Numbered from the stretch's first letter, positions 4,207 through 32,000 are shown. The stretch is 32,000 nt of DNA from Candidatus Saccharimonadota bacterium (GCA_963706795.1 OY970170.1:540001-572000); one strand, 5' to 3'. The notes: generated by a model from the sequence alone, not told the origin. Translations and numbers: made by a program.

Positions 4207-5654
4207 GAAAGGGAATATACTTCTCCGTTTTTAGTATCTGCTTGCTCCTGTCGATCGGGTGTATTACTAGCTGATTTTACTACGGAGTGATATGACTCGC
4301 ATGTATTGTTCTCAGTATGTTCTGAGTACGATGAATGCGAGTTTTATGATCTTTAGCACTCTTCTGAGTATTTTTAGGAAGCGGTATTTCCTTGTATTTT
4401 AGCCATCAATACGAACAGGATCGAAGCGAGCTTATAGCTCTTTTAAGTGAAAAAAATACCCATCAAGCAGAAGTTATCTCCATTCGCTGAGACAGAAATG
4501 GACAACTTCGACTCATGCTTAAAATCATATATTGATCAAAAGAATACTTCTTCGAATCATCCTTTACCAGCGGACTGAAGATTATTCCTTGAAGTATTCT
4601 CACCCTCGAAAAGCTCACCCGCAAACGCGAATCTCTCGAATATCTCTATTCACAAGGTCTTCTTGCTAGTTTGCAATGAAATATCACAGATATTCTTGCC
4701 CCTCAAGTCATTTCACCATTCGCACGGATTCGATCGGGCGTCAATACTGGACTCATTGCCATCCTTCCAGAGAATGAAGCTGCACTTGCCGCAGGCATGC
4801 TCGTCTGAGAAAAATCCCTCTTCAGTGATACACTCTATGCTGGCTACCAACGCATTGGACTCTCTCATCTCATCGTCGTAAGTGGGAGTAATATCGCTCT
4901 TGTTCTCATTACTCTTCTCGTCTTTACGAGATGGATGTGACGAAATATTCGCTTACCGTTACTTATAGCGCTCACTGTAGGGTACATCATTTTAGTTGGC
5001 GGGGATGCACCCGTAATACGAGCTGGTATCATGGGTCTCATTGCATACAGCTTTGTCGAATTTGGCAATCGTGTCGATGCAGTAAGAACCTTACTCTTTG
5101 CTTCGGTGATTCTTTGTATTATCTCACCCTATAGTTTGCTCTATGATGCAGGATTTCAACTCTCGGCACTCGCGACTCTGGGGCTTATTTGTGCGAGTCC
5201 GGATATCAAGAGATTTCTGGATTGGATACGTACTCCAAAGTGGCTTGGTGAAATTATCGCGACGAGCATGGCTGCTTCTCTTTTTACACTTCCCATTACA
5301 CTTTCGATTTTTGGTTCGACACATATGGCGAGTATTCTCGCCAATATCGTCATCGCACCATTTGTAGGGATATCACTCATTGGATGAGTGATTGCACTTA
5401 TTGCCAGCATAATCTGACATGGAATAGGCTATGCGCTCGGTTATATCGGATTTTGGCCCATCTACCTCTGTAATACCATCGCTCTTTGGTTTTCAGATTT
5501 CCCCTGACAGGTCACCCTTCCGCTCGGAGAATGGCGAATTTGGGTAGGAATGATCTTTTGATCGATAGATATACTCTGGATTCTCTTTTTTCTTGTTTCT
5601 AGAATTCCTCCAATTTCGTCCGTCGCAAACGCTTCTCAACCTCATCCAGGATAA
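4173..5654 (+). CDS. comEC: DNA internalization competence protein ComEC/Rec2 (competence domain only, ~493 aa)
   Basis: ATG at 4173 overlaps lgt by 34 nt. The frame is open through many TGA. Motifs are GLSHLIVVSGSNIALV, APVIRAGIMGLIAY and DAGFQLSALATLGLI. It stops at TAA 5652-5654. No C-terminal metallo-beta-lactamase domain is present. Confidence 0.8.
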
Positions 5655-6267
5655 ATCGGGTATAGGCTTCGGATTTTTTTGTTTCAATAATAAATCCTGC
5701 CTCTGACAGGAATATCTCAAAAAAGCGTGCCATTGCTACAATAATCTCGTTTCTCAGTGGTGAATCCAACTGCGTAATGAGCTTCTTGGTAAGCAAAACC
5801 GAAATATTGCTTGTCAGGGACGAAAAAAGAATTTCTACCCAGAGATTGATGTAGCTTCTTTCATCGTCACTGAGGAGTTTTTCATCAAAGTGCACAGGAA
5901 TATCGCGCTTTTGAGGTACTGGTATTTTTACAGCGAGCGAAAGATGATCCGCGAGTGCTCGAAGTCCTTTATCAAATGAGATTGCCGAAAAAGCAAGCAC
6001 AGCAATAGAGGGGACATCATTTTTAAGCAAAAAGAGGAGTCCATCTACCACATGATCATATTTTGCGTCTTTGAGCAGCTCAATCAAAATTCCCGCAAGC
6101 ACATCTGAGTGCTTACGAGCTCTTGATTCGTCTTTTCGGGATTTTTGAATACCAGCTAGGGCCTTACTCGAGCGTTCACGTTGTTTTTCACTCGATTCCT
6201 TCGGACCTTCGGAAGGTCCTTCTGGAGCACCTGTGTCGCCAGTATCAAAATTGTCTAAACTGTCCAT
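5599..6267 (-). CDS. hypothetical protein, 222 aa
   Basis: The ORF is uninterrupted. It has a charged, disordered N-terminus (DTGDTGAPEGPSEGPKESSEKQRERSSK) followed by a helical body. Its ATG overlaps the glyA stop by 13 nt, and its 3' end overlaps the convergent comEC 3' end by 56 nt. I recognised no motif. Confidence 0.6.
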   Translation of the reverse strand: MDSLDNFDTGDTGAPEGPSEGPKESSEKQRERSSKALAGIQKSRKDESRARKHSDVLAGILIELLKDAKYDHVVDGLLFLLKNDVPSIAVLAFSAISFDKGLRALADHLSLAVKIPVPQKRDIPVHFDEKLLSDDERSYINLWVEILFSSLTSNISVLLTKKLITQLDSPLRNEIIVAMARFFEIFLSEAGFIIETKKSEAYTRFILDEVEKRLRRTKLEEF

Positions 6268-20200: not shown

Positions 20201-23200
20201 ATGAGTACTCTTCTCAAGAAGGTTACTTCAACGGTAAGCGTTCTTTCGATCGCTGTAGCTGCTGTTAGCTCAACGCTTACAGTTTCTGCTGCATCTGAAT
20301 TTGCTGCTTCTGCTGAATTAGTCGCTCAGGCTGGTATTATTAATACTCAAGCAACTGAAGCCGGATACCGTCTCGGTGATAATATCACACGTGCGGAAAT
20401 GGCAAAAATCGCTGTTAAGCTCTCAGGGAGCGAAGCAGGAAGCTGTGCAGGTAATGTCTACTCAGATGTTACTTCAAAGCTTGGTGATCTCTGTGGATTT
20501 ATTGAAGCTGCGGCTGACGCTGGTATTGTCTCAAAGGCAAATGCTAAGTTCCGCCCTTCTGACCTCGTAACTCGAGCAGAAATGGTAAAGATGCTCCTCG
20601 CTGCCAGTGGAGTAGCTCCTACTGATGTTTCTGCTGGATTCTCTGACGTTTCTGCATCTCTTGGTGACCTTGCCGGGTACATCAATGCAGGAGTTGAAGA
20701 GGGTTGCGTTAAGGCAGGTGCAACATTCCGACCTAATGCTACTTCCACTCGTGGTGAAGCATTCAAGGTTACGGCTTGTGTAGCTGGTCTTACTGACACT
20801 ACTCCTACTACTCCACCTACTACTGGTACTGGAACTACAACTCCTCCTACTACTGGTACAGGTACTACTGTTCCTCCAGTTGTGATTGCAACAGGTGACC
20901 TCACGGCTACCCTCAATCCTGCAACTCCGGCTGCGACAACTCTTCCTACTGGTTCTGCTTACAACAAGGTTCTCGCTGTAGATCTTACAGCTGGTTCTGC
21001 TGATGCTGCAGTTACAGGTTTCGAAGTTACACGTACTGGTCTCATCTCTAACACAAACATCTCTGGTGTTTCTGCTTGGGTTGACGGTGCACGTCTCGGA
21101 AATGTAGTTCAGTCTCTCTCTGCTGATGGTAAGGCTACCGTTTCTTTCGGTAACACTCCACTCACTATTAAGGCTGGCACAACAAAGACAATTACTTTCG
21201 CGGTTAATATCCGTTCTGGAAATTATTCTGGTACAGTTGGTCTTACTCTCTCAAAGGTAATTGCAGGTGGTACTGTTACTGGTACTCCAGTTACATCTAA
21301 CACTCACTCAGTAGTTGATGGTTCTTCTTCACTCGTTTCATACGATGTTGGTTCTATCGCTGTTGGTGGTGTTGCTACTTCTATTGGAGCTTCTGCTCCA
21401 GTGAGTCCTACTCTTCTCGACATTGGTCAGACGACTGAAGTTGCTAAGGTTAAGATTACACACAACAACTCTAAGGAAGATCTCTCTATTGAAGGTATGA
21501 ATATCTTCATTGATGGATCAGTTTCAGACTCTGACCTCTCTGGTTTCGAAGTTTGGTCTCAGGAAGGTACGAAGCTCGCTTCAGCTGATGTTGCTAGCGG
21601 ACGCTACGTAAACTTCAAGTTTGCTACTCCTTACGTTATTGCTCAGGGTGGTACTCGCTACATGACTATTAAGGCTACTGTAGCTACTGGTAAGTACAAT
21701 TCAGGACGAAACTTCTCAGTTCGCATCCGTGATGATTTCGATATCGTTGCACGTGGTGTTACTACTGGAACATACATCCTCCCAAACAATCCTAACACTC
21801 TTCTCGGTAACCAGTACTGGTTCGGGATTAATGCAGGTAACCTCACTATCTCTAAGGCTACAGATTCTCGCAGCCAGAACATCGGTGCTAACGCAGACGA
21901 TCTCGTTCTCGCTACATTTGACGTAAAGGCTTCAGGTGAAGATATTGAAGTTCAGAAGGTTAACTTCTGTGTTACTAAGGCAAGTGGTGCAGTTGACCTC
22001 CGCGGAACTATTAAGATTACCGCTGGTGGACAGACTGTATTCTCTACAGATGCTTCTAATGTTAATAACTATGGAACTGTCCCTTGTACTGGTGGAAACA
22101 CTGGATACCTCAGTTCATACGTAACAATCAAGGCTGGTACTACTGCTAAGTTCAACGTTATTGCATCTACTTCTTCTTCAGCTGTTGCTGCAAGTTCGTA
22201 CGTTGCTTCAATCTTCAACTTCTCATACAAGCTCACTTCTTCTAACACTATTACAAACAGCACATCAGTTTACACTGGTAATACACTCGCTGTTGAAGCT
22301 ACAACTCTCACTGTTTCTGCAAACGGAGCGTTCAATCCTTCAAATATTGTTAAGGGACAGAGCCAGGCTAAGATTGGTTCATTCAACATCCAGGCATCTA
22401 ATGCTGACGATGTAAACGTAAACACTGTTATCGTAAACGTTGCTGCTACAGGTGGTCTCACTGGTATCAACAATCTTACACTTAAGTCTGGTGCTAAGCA
22501 GCTCGGAAATGTTATCTCAAATCCTGCCGCTACTGGAAACTCATTCTCAGTAAATTCTGGTGACCTCAAGGTTGCTAAGAACTCTACTGTTACTATTGAC
22601 GTATACGCTGACATTACTTCTGCTGTTACTGCAACTGCTATCTCTGTTAATATCGGTACAAACGGTGTTACAGGTGTTGGTGCTACTAACTCAGTAAGTC
22701 TTTCAGCTCCAGTTTCATCTGTTGGTGCTGTTGCACTCACAGTAGTTGGAAATGGTTCACTCACTATTGCTAGTGACTCTCTTACTCCAGGTAAGCAGAT
22801 TCTTACTGCTGGTCTTACTAACAAGGAAGTTTTCCGCTTCCAGGTTAAGGCTGACAACAAAGAAGATCTCCGCCTCGACAAGATTACTCTCGGAAGTTAC
22901 TCTACTGGTACGACCGTTACAGATCTTGGTAAGAACTTCCTCAATGTTAAGATCTACGACGGAGCAACTCAGCTCGGTGGTTCAGTTACATTCGTAGGTG
23001 GTGCTGCTAAGTTCACTGGACTCGGTTATGTTGTACCTAAGGGTGCTAACAAGACTCTCTCAGTTCGTGTTGATACTGCAACTTCAGGTGTTCTCGAGAA
23101 TGCAGCAACTGTTCTTCTTACTCCAACACAGGTAGAATATACTGGTGTTGCAGGTGGACAGCTCTCTGCTCTTGCTGCTCCTTCAGGTGTAGCTATCTCT

Positions 23201-23701
23201 AACAGCATGCTCCTCCAGGATGTTAAGGTTGTCCTCGCGTCAACTATGGCATCTCCAGCATCTAAGACAGTAGGATCTACAAACCAAGATATTGGTGCGT
23301 ATACACTTACTGCTGACGGTGTTCGTGATATCACTGTAACATCTCTCAAGGTGAAGCTCTCTGGTAGCGCGTTCTCTGGTTCTGCTGTTTCTAACGTACG
23401 TCTCCGATACAACAATACTGACTACGTTGGTACACTCTCTGGTTCTGTTGTAACATTCTCAACTCCGATCAATGTTACTTCAGGAAGCGCTATTAGTTTC
23501 ACAGTTCGTGCTGATACATCTGCTATTTCTGCAGGTGCTAACTCAACACTTACTCTCGGAACTTCTATCGAAGGTGTTTCTGGAATTGTAGATCCTACAA
23601 ACTCAGTTACATACAGCTATACAGACGTAAATGGTAACCCATTCACTGGCGTTACAACTTCTGACAGCTATCCAGTTGCAGGTGCAGTTCTTAGCTACTA
23701 A
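20201..23701 (+). CDS. S-layer-type surface protein: signal peptide, three SLH domains, Thr/Pro linker, six tandem ~155-aa beta-rich modules (1166 aa)
   Basis: Single uninterrupted ORF. The signal peptide is MSTLLKKVTSTVSVLSIAVAAVSSTLTVSA|ASE. SLH motifs are YSDVTSKLGDLCGFIEAAADAGIVSKANAKFRPSDLVTRAEMVKML, FSDVSASLGDLAGYINAGVEEGCVKAGATFRPNATSTRGEAF and a degenerate first copy. The body is Thr/Ser/Gly/Val-rich. A strong intrinsic terminator follows. Codon bias is strongly T-ending and there is no TGA codon. Confidence 0.8.
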   Translation: MSTLLKKVTSTVSVLSIAVAAVSSTLTVSAASEFAASAELVAQAGIINTQATEAGYRLGDNITRAEMAKIAVKLSGSEAGSCAGNVYSDVTSKLGDLCGFIEAAADAGIVSKANAKFRPSDLVTRAEMVKMLLAASGVAPTDVSAGFSDVSASLGDLAGYINAGVEEGCVKAGATFRPNATSTRGEAFKVTACVAGLTDTTPTTPPTTGTGTTTPPTTGTGTTVPPVVIATGDLTATLNPATPAATTLPTGSAYNKVLAVDLTAGSADAAVTGFEVTRTGLISNTNISGVSAWVDGARLGNVVQSLSADGKATVSFGNTPLTIKAGTTKTITFAVNIRSGNYSGTVGLTLSKVIAGGTVTGTPVTSNTHSVVDGSSSLVSYDVGSIAVGGVATSIGASAPVSPTLLDIGQTTEVAKVKITHNNSKEDLSIEGMNIFIDGSVSDSDLSGFEVWSQEGTKLASADVASGRYVNFKFATPYVIAQGGTRYMTIKATVATGKYNSGRNFSVRIRDDFDIVARGVTTGTYILPNNPNTLLGNQYWFGINAGNLTISKATDSRSQNIGANADDLVLATFDVKASGEDIEVQKVNFCVTKASGAVDLRGTIKITAGGQTVFSTDASNVNNYGTVPCTGGNTGYLSSYVTIKAGTTAKFNVIASTSSSAVAASSYVASIFNFSYKLTSSNTITNSTSVYTGNTLAVEATTLTVSANGAFNPSNIVKGQSQAKIGSFNIQASNADDVNVNTVIVNVAATGGLTGINNLTLKSGAKQLGNVISNPAATGNSFSVNSGDLKVAKNSTVTIDVYADITSAVTATAISVNIGTNGVTGVGATNSVSLSAPVSSVGAVALTVVGNGSLTIASDSLTPGKQILTAGLTNKEVFRFQVKADNKEDLRLDKITLGSYSTGTTVTDLGKNFLNVKIYDGATQLGGSVTFVGGAAKFTGLGYVVPKGANKTLSVRVDTATSGVLENAATVLLTPTQVEYTGVAGGQLSALAAPSGVAISNSMLLQDVKVVLASTMASPASKTVGSTNQDIGAYTLTADGVRDITVTSLKVKLSGSAFSGSAVSNVRLRYNNTDYVGTLSGSVVTFSTPINVTSGSAISFTVRADTSAISAGANSTLTLGTSIEGVSGIVDPTNSVTYSYTDVNGNPFTGVTTSDSYPVAGAVLSY
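20810..20869 (+). repeat. 2 x 30-nt tandem repeat encoding the TPPTTGTGTT linker
   Basis: Positions 20810-20839 and 20840-20869 both encode TPPTTGTGTT, with a few synonymous differences. The repeat lies between the SLH region and the modular body. Confidence 0.8.
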
Positions 23702-23903: not shown

Positions 23904-25313
23904 ATGTCTTTGTCTTCTAAGTTGTCTATCGTTTCTCTAAAACGAATCCTCTTTTGTCTGAGTCTTCTAATCGGTATTTCTATCAGTGATCAGATCGCAC
24001 TTGCGGCCCCACTTTGTCCGGACGATTACATCTCTATACGACCAACCCCACCTACTGACTCTTGATACTATGCTATATTTAATGATGTACCTTGAAATGC
24101 AACGTCACTTGTATGAATCTACGAAGGAGATAGTAAGGCAAAGGATATTGCATACTTTAATAAACTGAGCTGAGTAGTTTGTTATAAAATTATAGATCGC
24201 ATTAATTTTCAGGGGCTTGGATATAGTTGGAATGGCACCGTATGGACATATGTACGCGCTGAGTGATCGACGGGTGGAGCTAAATACGATTTTAAGAACT
24301 CAAGCCTTGTTGCGCCTGTCGTCAAAACCATGACCTGATCCAACTTTATTTTGCCAACCAATTCAGGTTCAATTAGCCTTACGCTATCTGGGATTACAGA
24401 TCCTGACGAATGACAGACACTTAGTTATAAATACCAATGGAACTGAACTGGGGGTGCGTGGATAAATTCTGGACTCACTAGTACAACGCCTAAATTAAAT
24501 TGAGTCGAAACCATATCAGTCTTTGGCGGATATCCAAATTTGCCCGAGGGTAGCAACACTCTGTATGTTCAAATTAGTGATTCTGAGCAGTACTCAAATA
24601 TATACTCAGTATTCTTTATAAAAGCTGTTAACAATCCGTTGATGACAGTTGTAAATCCAGATGCTAATTATGCAACATCCAAAACTGTAACGCTAACAGG
24701 AACATATCTAAATAATTTTACGCTGAGTTATAATATTAGTACATCGTCTATTTGTGATAAGAGTGGTGTTTTTACGCCGTATGCACCAGTTGTAATTAAA
24801 TCTACTTCAGATAATGGAAAATATGTTTGTTTTCGTGCAATGGATAGCTTCTGAAATGCTTTATATACAGTCTCAGATAAGGTCACATGAATAGTTACTG
24901 GTCGTGATAGCACCTCAAAGACTTCACCAGTTAAAAATTCTGACCTCTTTGCAAATTACTCTGAATGGTACAAAGGTTCGCTGCGGGATTATGACCCAAT
25001 TTTCATCCTTGTTAAGTCACAAGTCTCACAGTCAACTAATCTATCCTATACATGAAGTACTTTTAGTTATCCAAACCTTATTACCGATATAAATGGAGAT
25101 GGTCTTCCTGATCTCATAGTAACTAATTTCTCTATACGCCCAGAACCATACATGGTTAATGGGCAACAATTTATAGATTATAGTTATACAAACTCATACG
25201 GTTTGTTGCTTAACAGGGGAAATATGGATTATGAAGTAACATACAGATGTGTTCGCTACCAATCAAGCATTTATACGGGGAACAATGGCTACTACGGTGA
25301 CTGTGCTCAATAA
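23904..25313 (+). CDS. secreted Ig-like repeat / FG-GAP (VCBS)-motif protein, 469 aa
   Basis: ATG at 23904. The frame was checked codon by codon and contains 12 in-frame TGA and no TAA/TAG until 25311. The signal peptide is MSLSSKLSIVSLKRILFCLSLLIGISISDQIALA|AP. Two Ig/PKD-like segments are present (ITDPDEGQTLSYKYQWNG and KYVCFRAMDSFGNALYTVSDKV). One FG-GAP/VCBS-type motif is present (ITDINGDGLPDLIVTNF). Confidence 0.65.
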
Positions 25314-25355
25314 AAGAGCATGTCTTGACCTTATACCCAGTTACCATTTACCGTC

Positions 25356-28300
25356 ATGAAGAGTTTATTTTCTGTCATACTCCTATGACTCTTTTATGCT
25401 GCCTGTACGCCGCTTTGAGTAAGTGCAGATACTCAGGGTGGTGCGGGTTCGCAAGCTGCGCAAACGAAGCAATGAATTGATAAAAACAGTTCGTCATTTC
25501 AAAATGACCTCTTTTCGGGGGTTGCCGCATATTCCTATGATTTTGTCTTTCCGGCGGGACAACGAGGGCTCACTCCAAAGCTTGGGGTGAGCTATAACTC
25601 AGCAACGACTGATTCGCTCGCAGATGCTGGATACGGATTTTCGCTCGGAGTTTCGTCTATTTTCCGAGCTACACGCAAGGGGAATGACAAACTCTATACG
25701 CTCAATGAATTCGCTATAAACGCGGATTTTGGAAGCAACGAACTGCTTGAAACTGGTTCAGGAGTCTATATGGGTAAAAACAACAATGATCTTACTCAAT
25801 ATGGCTTCGCAGATGAAGCATGGACTGTTCGCGACAATCAGTGAAATACATATGTATTTTGAGGAAGCGATGTCTACCGACAAATCAATCCAGACAACAG
25901 CAAGACTTTTCGCTGGCTACTACGGGAGAAGCGGGATGCTTTTGGGCACAAAATCGCCTACGAATACGACAAAAAGGATAACAATATCTATCTTTCAAAG
26001 ATCTCATACGGCTTTTTCGGAGCTAATCCGCTCTATACGATACAAATCAACTACCTCGAGCGTACATTTTCGGCGCTGAGTTATATCTATGGCTTCAAGC
26101 TCGAAAATCATAGGCTTGTAAGTTCGATCGTTGGTAGTGTGTGTGATACGCAACCATGTCGAGAAATCAAACGATATGCGCTCAATTACAGCGACATCGA
26201 AACTGCCTTCCCAAAGCTTGTGACTATCTCTGAGAGTGCGGGAAGTCTTTCAAAGCCAGATAATTCCTTTGAATATTACAAAGACGGTATTGGGGTGAAT
26301 CTTCTGAAGACCATTCATAATGGGCGAGGAGGCGATATTGGACTCGAGTACAAATCTTCTACTGCGTACAAAAATACGACTGTACCGTTTGTCATTAAAA
26401 CACTCTATAAGGTCAGCTTTATAGATAGCGTAACAGGACTAAAAAACACAAAAACCTATGACTATATTGGTGGAAATTTTTACTTTGATCCCACCAATAT
26501 CTTTCAACGTGGCTACACGGGATTTAGCAAGGTGCGCATTATCTCGGACAACGGCACCTACACAGAGGATTCATTCCATCAATCGGAATCGGATTCCAAT
26601 AATGTACAAAATGCGACCCTCGGTGAGTTTGATGATCACATCAGCAAAAAAGGGAAAATCTACCGAGAAGAAAATTTTGATGCAAGTGGAAGCGTATACA
26701 CTTCACGTATTACTAAGTGGGTCAAAAGTGCCCGTGGAAACGGTGCATTCTTCGTATATCCAGAACAAAAGACGAACATCCTCTGGAATGGTAGTGGATC
26801 TCATCTAGATAGCGCGGAGAGCTTTGTATATGATAGGCTTGCTAATACGACGCACCATACATCGTATGGGCTCGTCACTGCAAATACGAGCAATGGAAGC
26901 TTCACGGATATTCCTGGTGATACTATCAACGAGGATGTGAGCTATGCTACGGACGATACAAATATTTTTGTTTCGCTTCCGTGCAGGTCATATAGCACAG
27001 ATATCAATTGAAAGGTCTATAACGACATTCGTTATACCTACGATACACTGGCAAATTGTCGTGTTACATCAGGGCTTCTCTCAAAAAAAGAGCAATCTTT
27101 TGCTGAAGAATCGCGCTTGATCGGTGAATCATACACCTACAACACAGGCTGACTCATGAGCCAAAAAACCGATCCACTCGGCAACACTACAAAATATGAG
27201 TACGACGCATACTGACTCTTTCCGATTACGGTCACCAATGCCAAGGGCTTTATTAATAGATTAAGCTACGACTATGGTATCCAGGCGCCCGTACTCTCGA
27301 CGGATCCAAATGGCGTAAAAAGCAAATCCGTCTATGACGCATTTGGACGCATGCTCGAACAGAGACTCATTGATACAAATGGTGCCGAGGTGCTGCTGAG
27401 TAAAAATCGTATCAGTGATGCTACGTCACCAAATTATGTTGAACAAACCCTTATCTTTGATGGCACGTCCTCAAAAGTAAGCCGAAGCCACTTCGATGGA
27501 TTTGGTAAGCAGATCGAAACAAAAACTTCCTCAAAGGATTCGAATGTCTTCTCGACAGCAAAGCAACGCTATGACACAGAATGAAATACCGTCTTTGCGA
27601 CACATGAGAGATTTGAGCCATCGCTCGACTATACTCCGATCGATGCGAGTGAACTTGGTAATACATTTACCTTTGACGCGCTCAATCGACTCTCGAGTCA
27701 GATCAACAAAGATGGGAAAACATCGTTTTCGTATGCCCTCCTTAAGACAACCGCCACCAACCAAAATAATATTCCAAAGTCATTTACCAAGGATATATTT
27801 GGCAATCTTGTCCAAGTTGACGAAGTTGCCTCGGGTAACACTTTTGTTACAAAATATGAATACCTCCAAGGCAACAAACTTGCCCGCATGACGGATGCAA
27901 AAAATAATACCCGAAGTCTGAGCTATGACAGTCTCGGTCGACTTACAAAAATGGAGGATTTACATGCCCAGAGCAATCTTACGCCTAAGTCGGTAACGCT
28001 CACCTATAATGATAATTCCCAGATCGCATCAAGAACATGACTCTCTGGTGAAAAAATCAGTTATACCTACGACTCTCTCGGGCGAGCCACCCAAGAAAAT
28101 GTCGCAGGGAAGATTGTGATATATGAGTATGATACAGGCTCGTATGGTCTCTGACGACTGAGCAAATTCACCAAAGATGGCTACGCAGAAAGCTATGCCT
28201 ACGATGCATTTGGGAGAAAGTCACAGGAGCAAAAAATATATTCTGACAAGACATACTCTCTCGGATATACCTATGCTACTGATGGCAGCGTACTGACCAT

Positions 28301-30140
28301 AACATATGACGATGGCAGCAAGGTAAATTACAGCTACCAAAACGGATATCTAGGTGCGATGAACTATGCTGGAAAGCCGATCCTGAATAATATCATCTAC
28401 GCAGATAACAATACCGCAAAACGCTACGAATATGCCAATGGTGTAACCACCGAAGATACACTCGACTACACCCATGGATACCGAATCATAGCTCGCAAGG
28501 CAACGTCAGGAAGTGGTATGCTTCAAAATCTGAGCTATGGCTTTGATACGCTCGGAAATATCACAGATATCAATGATGCTGCGGATACCATTCTCAAGAA
28601 GCAGAGTCATTTTGTCTATGACGACATTGGACGACTCGTAAATGCAAGCTTCACCAACACGGGTGGAACAAATGCCTATAGTTACGCATATGACGCGATA
28701 GGGAATATTACGAGCCAATCTGGCGTTGGGAACTATCTCTATGATGGCATCTATCCACATGCAGTAACTGCTGTAGGTGGTTCGCCACTTGCGTATGACA
28801 ACAATGGAAATGTCTCTCGCGAAGGATCAGGAATGCTCGTGAAAACATATGTATATAGTCCAAAACAAGAGCTCTTAAGCTCTCATAGTCCATCAAGCGA
28901 TGCTCAGTATCTCTACGATGCCTCTGCTGTACGAGTGCGAAAAGATAGTGTATCTGCTAATTCACAGTCGAGCACGAACTATGTTGGAGATGTCTACGAA
29001 GAACAAACTACCAAGCTCCTCAACGCGAGCGGGGCAGTTACGAGCACAAAAATTCTCCGTACCAAATATCTCTTTGCTGGTGGTATCAAGATCGCGAGTG
29101 TTCTCACGACTGATGGCGGACCAGAAAATATCACGTACCACCTCAGTGACCACCTTGGAGGTGCGAGCATAGATATTTCGCAGAGTTGAGCAGTTCTGCA
29201 ATATGCGGATTATCTGCCATATGGTGCTAATCGTATCCTCTCTCGTACTGGTAACTACAAAAATGCCTATCTCTTCACAGGCAAGGAAAAAGATGACGAG
29301 AGCGATCTTCAGTATTTTGAAGCGCGCTACTACTCTCCAACAAATGGACGATTCTATTCGCAGGACCGAGTTTTTTGGGAGATTGGACAAACTAAACGAG
29401 GACTTGGTACCTTGTCTGATCCACAGAAACTCAATGCATATTCTTATGCACGAAATAATCCGATTGTGTATAGTGATCCTACGGGAGAATACGATACGTC
29501 TGATTTTCAGCAAGCACTTAACGTGTGATGGGCTAATCTAAAAGATGGTGCTACACAGGTAACAAATCAAGTACAGCAAAAGGCAGATCAGGCAGCAACA
29601 ATGGCTGTTGATGTTTTGCATACAGTTGCAAGTATGATGCCAGATTCCCGACAAGTATGACAGTGACTCGTGTCAGCTGGAGGTGCAGTAGCAGCCTATA
29701 CAGGTCCAGCCTGTGCAGCTTCCGTGCAGATTAGTGGTGGTTGTGCGCTCGTTTGACTCGCTTGATGATGAATTCCTACTCTGGCTTGTACGCCACTCGC
29801 AGCGTCTGCTGGTGGTATATGTGGAGCTACTGCTGCTGGTATATGAGTTGCTGGTGTGGGTAACTATATGATGAGTCAGGGTGGAGGTAGTAATAACCAA
29901 AATCCTTCAAAATCTTCAGGAAAACCTCAGTATAAAGATACAAAGTCTTGATTAAGTTGAAAAGAAGGTGCAAAAGACACTCCAAGTTGGGCGAAATGAG
30001 AAAGACCATATGTTTGAGAATCATGAAAAGACTATGCAAAAAGATTGCTTGATTGAAAATTTGGACCATGAAACTACAGAACTTGACCAGAAAGTGATTT
30101 TAGTAAGATTAAAAAATATGGGGATCGTAACTTTAAATAA
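25356..30140 (+). CDS. SpvB-N / RHS (YD-repeat) polymorphic toxin, TcB-TcC-like, with signal peptide and variable C-terminal toxin tip (1594 aa)
   Basis: One frame was verified from 25356 to TAA 30138-30140 with 28 in-frame TGA. An alternative upstream ATG exists at 25320. The signal peptide is MKSLFSVILLGLFYAACTPLGVSA|D, and it contains a lipobox-like YAAC. An SpvB/TcaC N-terminal signature is present (GVAAYSYDFVFPAGQRGLTPKLGVSYNS ... FRWLLREKRDAFGHKIAYEYD). There are many YD repeats (YTYDSLGR, YAYDAFGR, FVYDDIGRL, YAYDAIGNIT, LAYDNNGNV). The Rhs core end reads ARYYSPTNGRFYSQD ... NAYSYARNNPIVYSDPTGE at 29475-29489, followed by a 216-aa tip. Confidence 0.9.
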
Positions 30141-30141
30141 T

Positions 30142-30552
30142 ATGAAAGTCATTTTTCTGCTCAAACACACTAATTATACAAATTTTGATGGCAAAAATAT
30201 AGGCTATTTCTCGTCTTACGAAAAAGCTCGGTCTGCGTGTTTGACTGTATCACATCAATTAGGCTTTCGAGATTATCCAAATGACTTTGAGATCATTTGT
30301 GTACCACTTTATCATCAAAAAGATCAACTACCTAAGCATGCATATGAACTGGTTAAATCAACAGAATTGGATGATGTAGAAAAAACGTATTATCTTGGAA
30401 TATTTTGAAAACGTGTAGATGCTGAGCGACACAAAAAAGGGATTTTAAAAGAGAAAAAATCCCAACTTGGTGTATATCGCATAGAAATTGATCGAATCTA
30501 CTGGGAGGAAGGATTTATCAGTGTGGAAGAAGCATCGAGTGAGTTTTTGTAA
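30142..30552 (+). CDS. putative cognate immunity protein, 136 aa
   Basis: The ATG lies 1 nt after the toxin stop. Translation begins MKVIFLLKHTNYTNFDGKNIGYFSSYEKARSACLTVSHQLGFRDYPNDFEIICVPLY. It has one in-frame TGA (30406-30408) and stops at TAA 30550-30552. The role is inferred from its position directly after an Rhs toxin tip; I recognised no family. Confidence 0.55.
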
Positions 30553-31242: not shown

Positions 31243-32000
31243 ATGTCATATCTCGGACTTTCATTTTTCTCAAAGAGTGAGTATATTACCATACCTCAGG
31301 ATAACTATCACATATATACAAAGCTCTTTAGTAACTGTTTTTGAGCTATTAAAGTGCCCGATGTACGAACTCGGGGATACGGTCAAGATAATTTCTTGAA
31401 CATTTGGCTAACGACTGGTCCAAGTCTTCCAATAAATAGGGAGGCTTGGGAGTGATTTATGGAACTTCTCGAGTGAGATCATTCAATAGTACCTTGATTT
31501 CAACTCAGAGATGCAGTCATGATTGGTCACATAGATTGGGAACACTATTTGGTGCTTGAATCGCCATTAAATATTGAACAAATAACAAAGAACCAGTCAT
31601 TCATAGAATTTGTTTATCTACCAAATAAACAAGCATCTAGCATTTGAGGTATTTTTGATTTGGCGCAAGACGATATCATGCGTGATATTATTCAGGGCAA
31701 ATACGGTGCTTTATTTCTTGGTTTAAAGTCCTATCCAATACCGAGCTTTACATGCCCATGCTGCGGATTTATAACCCTCCATGAGGATCATCATGTATAC
31801 GAAATATGTGAAGTCTGTGACTGGGAAGATGATCCAGTGCAATTTGAATTCCCTGATTCTCCATCTTGAGCTAATAAGTGATCCCTTCGACAGAATCAAA
31901 ATTCTTTTCTTTCCACCCAATTTTCCGATCAGGAAAACTATCTTGGTTATTTAAAGGACAAAAATTGGAAACCTCTTTCTCCAACTAGTGCACCGAAAGA
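31243..32000 (+). CDS. CPCC-family cysteine-rich domain protein (3' end beyond window)
   Basis: ATG at 31243. The frame is open to the window end through seven TGA. Residues FTCPCCGFITLHEDHHVYEICEVCDWEDDPVQFEFPDSPSGANKGSL match the Cys-rich CPCC domain pattern (CPCCG ... EIC.VC.WEDD ... GAN). The N-terminal ~140 aa are unassigned. Confidence 0.7.

Follow-up and report, generated by a model that had tools for sequence, protein, structure and literature searches.

The RHS gene near the downstream end of the window (the window being the whole 32,000-nucleotide stretch of DNA that was analyzed) raises a question about the use of a reassigned codon. UGA is read as glycine here, and the toxin tip at the 3' end of the gene is crowded with this codon, whereas the long shell that precedes the tip in the same reading frame uses it sparingly. 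The contrast could reflect a function of UGA within the toxin, the history of the tip as a segment of DNA, or simply the variation in UGA usage that exists among the genes of the window.

The gene runs from 25356 to 30140 on the plus strand, within a frame (25314-30140) that contains a single TAA or TAG, at 30138. The ATG at 25356 is the gene start, as it is in the publicly available gene call for a Logan contig of identical sequence. The protein matches RHS_repeat (Pfam PF05593, E=5.6e-23, in two stretches), SpvB (2e-9) and TcdB_toxin_midN (4e-9), and is an RHS polymorphic toxin of the TcB-TcC type in which the last 216 codons are a putative exchangeable C-terminal toxin module. The boundary of this module is marked by a DPxGx motif, NNPIVYSDPTGE at 29475-29489, which aligns with NNPVIYVDPSGE in five relatives and is followed by complete sequence divergence; DPTGE is predicted to be the autoproteolysis or cleavage motif of the RHS core end. 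The parts of the locus are as follows.

23904..25313, plus strand: upstream partner gene, whose last ~140 residues have a conserved counterpart directly ahead of the RHS gene in each of the five relatives.
25356..29381, plus strand: RHS shell with native-like codon usage; signal-peptide-like N-terminus, SpvB, TcdB_toxin_midN and RHS repeats; TGA/Gly about.10, GC3.43.
29382..29489, plus strand: conserved RHS core end up to DPTGE, which holds the codon-usage change-point and with it the putative site of recombination; highly conserved with the five relatives.
29490..29942, plus strand: tip part 1, a helical linker and then a Gly/Ala/Cys-rich hydrophobic segment; 8/24 Gly codons are TGA, including the triple TGA; GC3.245.
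29943..30137, plus strand: terminal tip domain of about 60-65 residues; 8/11 Gly codons are TGA; GC.33, GC3.17.
30142..30552, plus strand: probable immunity gene, DUF7336-like with two tandem repeats, starting one base past the RHS stop codon; GC.34.

Several observations show that UGA specifies glycine in the window (code 25). Each of the 18 clearly coding genes is terminated by TAA or TAG, with no TGA stops, and the SHMT gene has in-frame TGA on invariant or conserved glycines of its motifs. Within the terminal domain of the tip, eight TGA columns are predominantly glycine in 31 standard-code homologues, and at four of these columns (G21, G34, G40 and G43) glycine is invariant or present in at least 90% of the sequences. 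The alignable TGA columns of the Gly-rich tip segment are likewise mostly glycine in six homologous tips. A reading of UGA as tryptophan in the tip (code 4) was ruled out, because the TGA columns align with conserved glycines. No tRNA-Gly(UCA) gene was found in the 32-kb window. Reassignment of UGA to glycine has been described in the Gracilibacteria and Absconditabacteria (PMC4032931, PMC8629427), and code-25 genomes span.21-.53 GC (PMC8629427). The present genome resembles those of the code-25 Gracilibacteria and Absconditabacteria in its TGA at conserved glycines, its exclusive use of TAA and TAG stops and its CPR-like contig of ~1.27 Mb. It differs in being comparatively rich in GC (~42% for the host DNA in the window) and in using UGA for only ~12% of its glycine codons.

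A recount gave exactly the numbers that a first-pass annotation had reported. The tip contains 16 TGA in 216 codons (29490-30137; 7.4%) and the preceding RHS codons 12 in 1378 (0.87%); three consecutive TGA are present at 29763-29771, reading LA-GGG-IP; and TGA encodes 8 of the 11 glycines among the last 65 residues. With the stop at 30138 as the single in-frame TAA or TAG, a counting or frame error was ruled out. Glycine is about twofold more frequent in the tip than in the shell (16% versus 9%), and the annotation had named the possibility that UGA density merely tracks glycine content. Glycine richness alone was excluded as the cause, in that the UGA/Gly ratio is itself raised, at.46 against.10-.12: TGA accounts for.457 of the glycine codons in the tip (16/35), while the shell has a share of.098 (Fisher P=7.7e-6 against the tip) and the background of the window one of.123 (binomial P=1e-6).

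How unusual is such a share within this genome? The genes of the window differ greatly in UGA share, from 0 to.43 (heterogeneity chi-square P=2e-8), with values of 0 for the S-layer gene (0/121 TGA/Gly),.07 for UvrA (6/84),.30 for the upstream partner gene at 23904 (12/40),.32 for ComEC (16/50) and.43 for ComF (6/14). Among the other genes and ORFs tabulated, 16 of 18 contain TGA, the exceptions being the S-layer gene and gene 5599-6267. The annotation had been right that the S-layer gene is free of UGA. This S-layer-like gene (20201-23701, plus strand) has a weak SLH match and uses GGT 84 times, and the probability of its containing no TGA at the background rate is 1e-7. It is presumably very highly expressed, and the difference between its zero and the heavy use of UGA in ComEC and ComF suggests translational selection against UGA as a glycine codon. 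The ORF at 31243-32000 (plus strand), which runs off the end of the window, has a Cys_rich_CPCC domain (PF14206, E=2e-19) and atypical codon usage, uses TGA for 7 of its 18 glycines, and belongs to an AT-rich stretch that lies 3' of the RHS gene.

Because ComEC, ComF and the upstream gene are also UGA-rich, a high UGA share is by itself no proof of foreign origin. When the spread among genes is fitted by a beta-binomial distribution, the tip (16/35) lies in the upper tail with P=.018, making it an outlier at about the 2% level, and it does not differ significantly from the neighboring AT-rich accessory ORFs (24/78 TGA/Gly, P=.14). The UGA excess of the tip is a real but moderate signal once overdispersion is taken into account. 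One reading of the excess is that the tip just happens to fall in the upper tail of an overdispersed distribution. This reading draws on the tail probability given above and on the fact that the region was chosen by eye among some 25 gene-sized segments. We nevertheless judge it improbable, since an independent signal, the GC3 of non-glycine codons, shifts at the same place (permutation P<1/300), and since the codon-usage score of the tip is the lowest of all segments tested.

This second signal is a sharp one. GC3 drops from.43 to.22 at a maximum-likelihood change-point of 29382 (support interval 29331-29439, LLR 21). This places the change within the conserved core end, 12-48 codons before DPTGE. 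A likelihood ratio as high was obtained in 0 of 300 permutations, and the position of the change-point is unchanged when all glycine codons are removed. Codon usage was also scored by comparing the window's own synonymous usage with that of low-GC code-25 relatives, in nats per codon, with positive values meaning window-like. All 17 background genes tested, the RHS shell included, score as window-like, from +.26 (the atypical gene 23904) to +1.05; 16 of the 17 lie between +.47 and +1.05, and the shell, at +.73, scores like housekeeping genes. The whole tip scores +.09 (+.12 without glycine codons) and its last 65 codons -.30 (-.19 without glycine codons), while the immunity gene, three downstream ORFs and the upstream partner gene score +.22 to +.31. 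Since the non-glycine codons shift too, the excess of UGA is one facet of a switch in the whole of codon usage, and it points to the history of the segment rather than to a purpose of the codon.

One such history would have taken place entirely within this genome. The tip and the accessory ORFs would be native sequences under weak synonymous selection, in which AT-biased mutation has converted GGA to TGA and lowered GC3, and UGA would have been purged from strongly expressed or constrained genes. The per-gene UGA shares do fall in a plausible order of expression, from the S-layer gene through UvrA to ComEC and ComF, and, as noted above, the tip cannot be distinguished statistically from the accessory ORFs. 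Several observations count against this drift in place. Shell and tip form one ORF on one transcript and are thus equally expressed, yet the switch between them is abrupt. Furthermore, local GC3 is no predictor of UGA share among the other genes of the window, and a regression of TGA on local GC3 confined to the window leads one to expect 4-6 TGA in the tip, against the 16 observed (P<=1e-4); when a model takes in the low-GC relatives as well, the expectation becomes 15.5. Finally, the strong conservation of the terminal domain as a protein shows that it is not a decaying sequence. We consider drift in place unlikely, though it is the most credible of the alternatives to the explanation favored below.

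The relatives of the gene provide a different standard of comparison. The five closest RHS proteins share 38-46% identity with its product over 97-99% of the length of that product, and their contigs (L003, L004, L005, L007 and L008) use code 25 and have a GC content of only 20-24%. In these five loci TGA makes up.80-.84 of the glycine codons in the shells,.77-.91 in the tips and.72-.92 in neighboring genes; expressed per codon, the density of TGA is 7.4-11.8% in the tips and 4.9-6.4% in the shells. In low-GC code-25 genomes of this kind, an RHS tip with 7.4% UGA is nothing out of the ordinary, and the unusual element in the present case is the UGA-poor host background that surrounds the tip. 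The first-pass annotation had raised the question of whether toxin tips in code-25 genomes are systematically enriched in UGA over their shells. Such enrichment is absent in the five closest code-25 RHS genes, where the pooled values are 77/89 (.865) for tips and 382/467 (.818) for shells (P=.36; MH odds ratio 1.4, not significant). A scan of a genome collection with the C-terminus of the shell returned as its sole match an Omnitrophica locus that is 31% identical.

The similarity with the relatives extends to the gene upstream. The partner gene at 23904..25313 is 35-40% identical (blastp, E 1e-21 to 1e-44) to the genes that lie upstream of the RHS genes in the relatives (L003 1510-1980, L004 1-621, L005 9469-9978, L007 585-2129 and L008 1587-4013). 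The N-terminal parts of these proteins are variable and the C-terminal domain of ~140 residues is conserved, with weak FG-GAP matches. To judge from this conservation, the upstream gene and the RHS toxin gene look like a two-gene unit. A possible mosaic structure within the upstream gene (10/28 versus 2/12 TGA) was considered and dropped, as the difference is not significant. In the public protein collection, the proteins of code-25 genes have tryptophan wherever the gene has TGA (which gives the RHS proteins P0051-P0055 86-101 Trp each) or are truncated at the first TGA, and homologues of code-25 proteins are thereby hidden or their similarity depressed.

Homologues of the terminal domain of the tip were found far outside these relatives. 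The domain has the sequence SGKEGAKDxPSWAKGxRPxVGESGKDFAKRL...GPGSEFNKIKKWGDRxF, and 50 homologues were recovered (P0001-P0050, best E 4e-26), in which it is joined to RHS, WXG100/YukE or portal-like proteins. Its identity with tips from Salmonella, Nocardia, Clostridiales, Moraxella plasmids, Pseudomonas phages and Acaryochloris is 45-73%; the hosts of the family further include Methylorubrum and Enterococcus, with the Moraxella copy on a small plasmid and the Pseudomonas copies in two phages. The annotation had asked whether relatives of the tip would turn out to be confined to code-25 lineages, and this list of hosts answers in the negative. The arrangement of linker, Gly-rich segment and terminal domain also recurs at the ends of other RHS proteins. 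Tip part 1 aligns with the Gly-rich segments of the standard-code RHS tips P0002-P0005, in which four of its TGA columns are mostly glycine; the other four, located in the linker and (one of them) in an insertion, are gapped or variable in these proteins.

Sequence and profile searches of Pfam, NCBIfam and the PDB found no match for the terminal domain, an AF2 model of one homologue (pLDDT 89) has no fold neighbor in the PDB by Foldseek, and a literature search with its motif found nothing. Its C-terminal position in RHS, WXG100-type and other carriers would fit a role as a toxin, and it looks like an undescribed, putative polymorphic-toxin domain that is paired with DUF7336. That pairing comes from the gene immediately downstream. 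Gene 30142-30552 is homologous to small genes found directly 3' of tip homologues, on the Logan contig L009 (where the product belongs to Pfam DUF7336), in the Pseudomonas phage L010 and on the Moraxella plasmid L011. Both halves of the gene match those DUF7336-type genes, and it is a tandem duplication. The gene thus resembles the small DUF7336 (PF24024) proteins in lying 3' of the same tip family, and differs from them in that the copy in the window consists of two tandem repeats and is below Pfam detection. From its position, it is probably the immunity gene of the toxin. A search among 1.84 billion protein representatives recovered the immunity protein itself and 19 distant matches, including distant tandem relatives, and the eight of these 19 that were read look like products of the standard code (normal Trp content); no code-25 relative was found in this database, which translates TGA as Trp.

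The immunity frame can be read back without a stop through 62 codons ahead of its ATG (29956-30141), where it overlaps the end of the toxin gene, and one public call (P0089) starts there; the public collection contains this one immunity gene under two differing calls, P0089 and P0090. The conserved N-terminus of the family supports the ATG at 30142 as the likely true start. The overlapping frame was also considered as a constraint on codon choice in the tip and rejected, as the choice between TGA and GGA there alters only the third codon position of the immunity frame.

The immunity gene is of particular interest for the idea that UGA serves a purpose in the toxin. Despite a GC content of.34, only 1 of its 8 glycine codons is TGA and 3 are GGC, which differs from the 8/11 TGA of the toxin domain (P=.02). 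According to this idea, the lethal domains of code-25 organisms would be loaded with UGA beyond what is seen in their immunity genes and beyond what composition dictates. The codon would act as a firewall, making the domain impossible to express in standard-code recipients or prey, or as a translational brake, slowing translation of the tip for its loading into the RHS shell. The contrast between toxin and immunity gene is in its favor, as is the lower UGA share of the accessory class (.31), and the tips of the five relatives are slightly above their shells, by a margin that is not significant. Against it, the comparison of 8/11 with 1/8 uses a window of the "last 65 residues" that was picked after the data were seen, and no significant enrichment was detected in the five relatives. 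The parallel shift in non-glycine codons is not predicted by selection that is specific to UGA, and a donor would gain no obvious benefit from protecting recipients. Moreover, the standard code already blocks the full gene from codon 11. We regard such loading as very improbable; if it were true, the contrast between toxin and immunity gene would be the first hint of it.

The same fact bears on the proposal, made in the first-pass annotation, that the UGA codons of the tip lock the toxin to code-25 hosts. This is true of the allele as it stands, and it is trivial in that TGA first occurs at codon 11 (25386), the shell holds 12 TGA of its own, and most other genes of the window have TGA as well (16 of the 18 tabulated); the additional TGAs of the tip add no containment to the full gene. 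The accompanying statement that the tip is no recent import from a standard-code donor holds up well, since conserved glycines that are of necessity GGN in the standard-code homologues are TGA here. Over longer times the boundary between the codes appears to have been crossed. The tips of L004 and L005 have counterparts in P0057, and the tip of L008 in P0059, that are carried on standard-code RHS proteins and are 40-48% identical. As judged from these homologues, tip families cross the genetic-code boundary over long time-scales and are then recoded.

The explanation that we favor, and consider probable, is that the UGA-rich tip is the compositional footprint of an import from a code-25 donor of lower GC, by displacement of the Rhs C-terminus. 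The presence of TGA at conserved glycines of the terminal domain implies a prolonged stay of the segment under code 25, combined with strong AT pressure. Such a stay fits a donor like the low-GC relatives and not the host genome, with its ~12% UGA among glycine codons. As the likely donor we envisage a different code-25 genome or a mobile element, lower in GC and with most of its glycines written as UGA. Homologous recombination in the conserved core would have brought the tip into the RHS gene together with a short piece of the core end, and the imported segment would not yet have drifted to the low UGA usage of its host. Rhs tips are known to be exchanged by displacement, with incoming tips carrying a fragment of the core and with a GC signature in the tip that differs from that of the core (Jackson et al. 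2009, PMC2935791).

Two observations argue against an import. First, a cassette that arrived jointly should look alike throughout, yet the immunity gene and the toxin domain differ in UGA usage as described above. Second, the apparently native ComEC and ComF genes and the syntenic upstream gene are UGA-rich as well. The comparison with native usage, moreover, draws on 32 kb of host DNA. Searches for the source were negative within their scope. A search with the tip, its UGA codons rendered as Trp in keeping with how the database stores code-25 proteins, gave no matches, and neither a donor nor a close relative using code 25 came to light; a search with the DNA pattern of the tip matched the window and nothing in viral contigs; and a search for displaced orphan tips with a core fragment gave no second core-end match in the window (read in code 25, with 1.9 kb downstream of the gene covered).

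Two known kinds of toxin come closest to this locus. Like the Rhs/YD-repeat toxins (PMC2935791), it has an RHS shell, a core end with DPxGx, a variable tip and then a probable immunity gene, and tip and core differ in composition, the switch between them falling within the conserved core end. It differs in that the host uses code 25, so that the contrast in composition appears as a jump in UGA(Gly), and in having an N-terminus of the TcB/SpvB type that includes a signal-peptide-like sequence, rather than that of a PAAR- or VgrG-linked T6SS protein. With the TcB-TcC cocoon of the Tc toxins it shares the combination of SpvB, TcdB_toxin_midN and RHS in one polypeptide and the placement of the C-terminal cargo after an aspartyl-protease-like DPxG motif. 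It differs from the Tc toxins in that no TcA partner is seen, the upstream partner in the window being an unrelated protein with an FG-GAP-like domain, and in that its cargo is a small unclassified domain.

What the locus displays is most likely mosaic evolution of the sort already known from Rhs toxins, which an unusual codon has brought into view, with no new mechanism involved. There is a practical lesson in the way that such genes are stored, in that public protein sets with tryptophan at UGA, or with proteins truncated there, mask the homologues of code-25 proteins. More generally, the sharing of toxin-tip families across the code boundary, followed by their full recoding, indicates that a reassigned codon is a leaky rather than an absolute barrier. 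The share of UGA among glycine codons can act as a sensitive tracer of the history of DNA segments in code-25 bacteria, and here it exposes a mosaic RHS gene. The implication would be that a pool of toxin and immunity cassettes circulates among code-25 lineages that differ widely in GC content.
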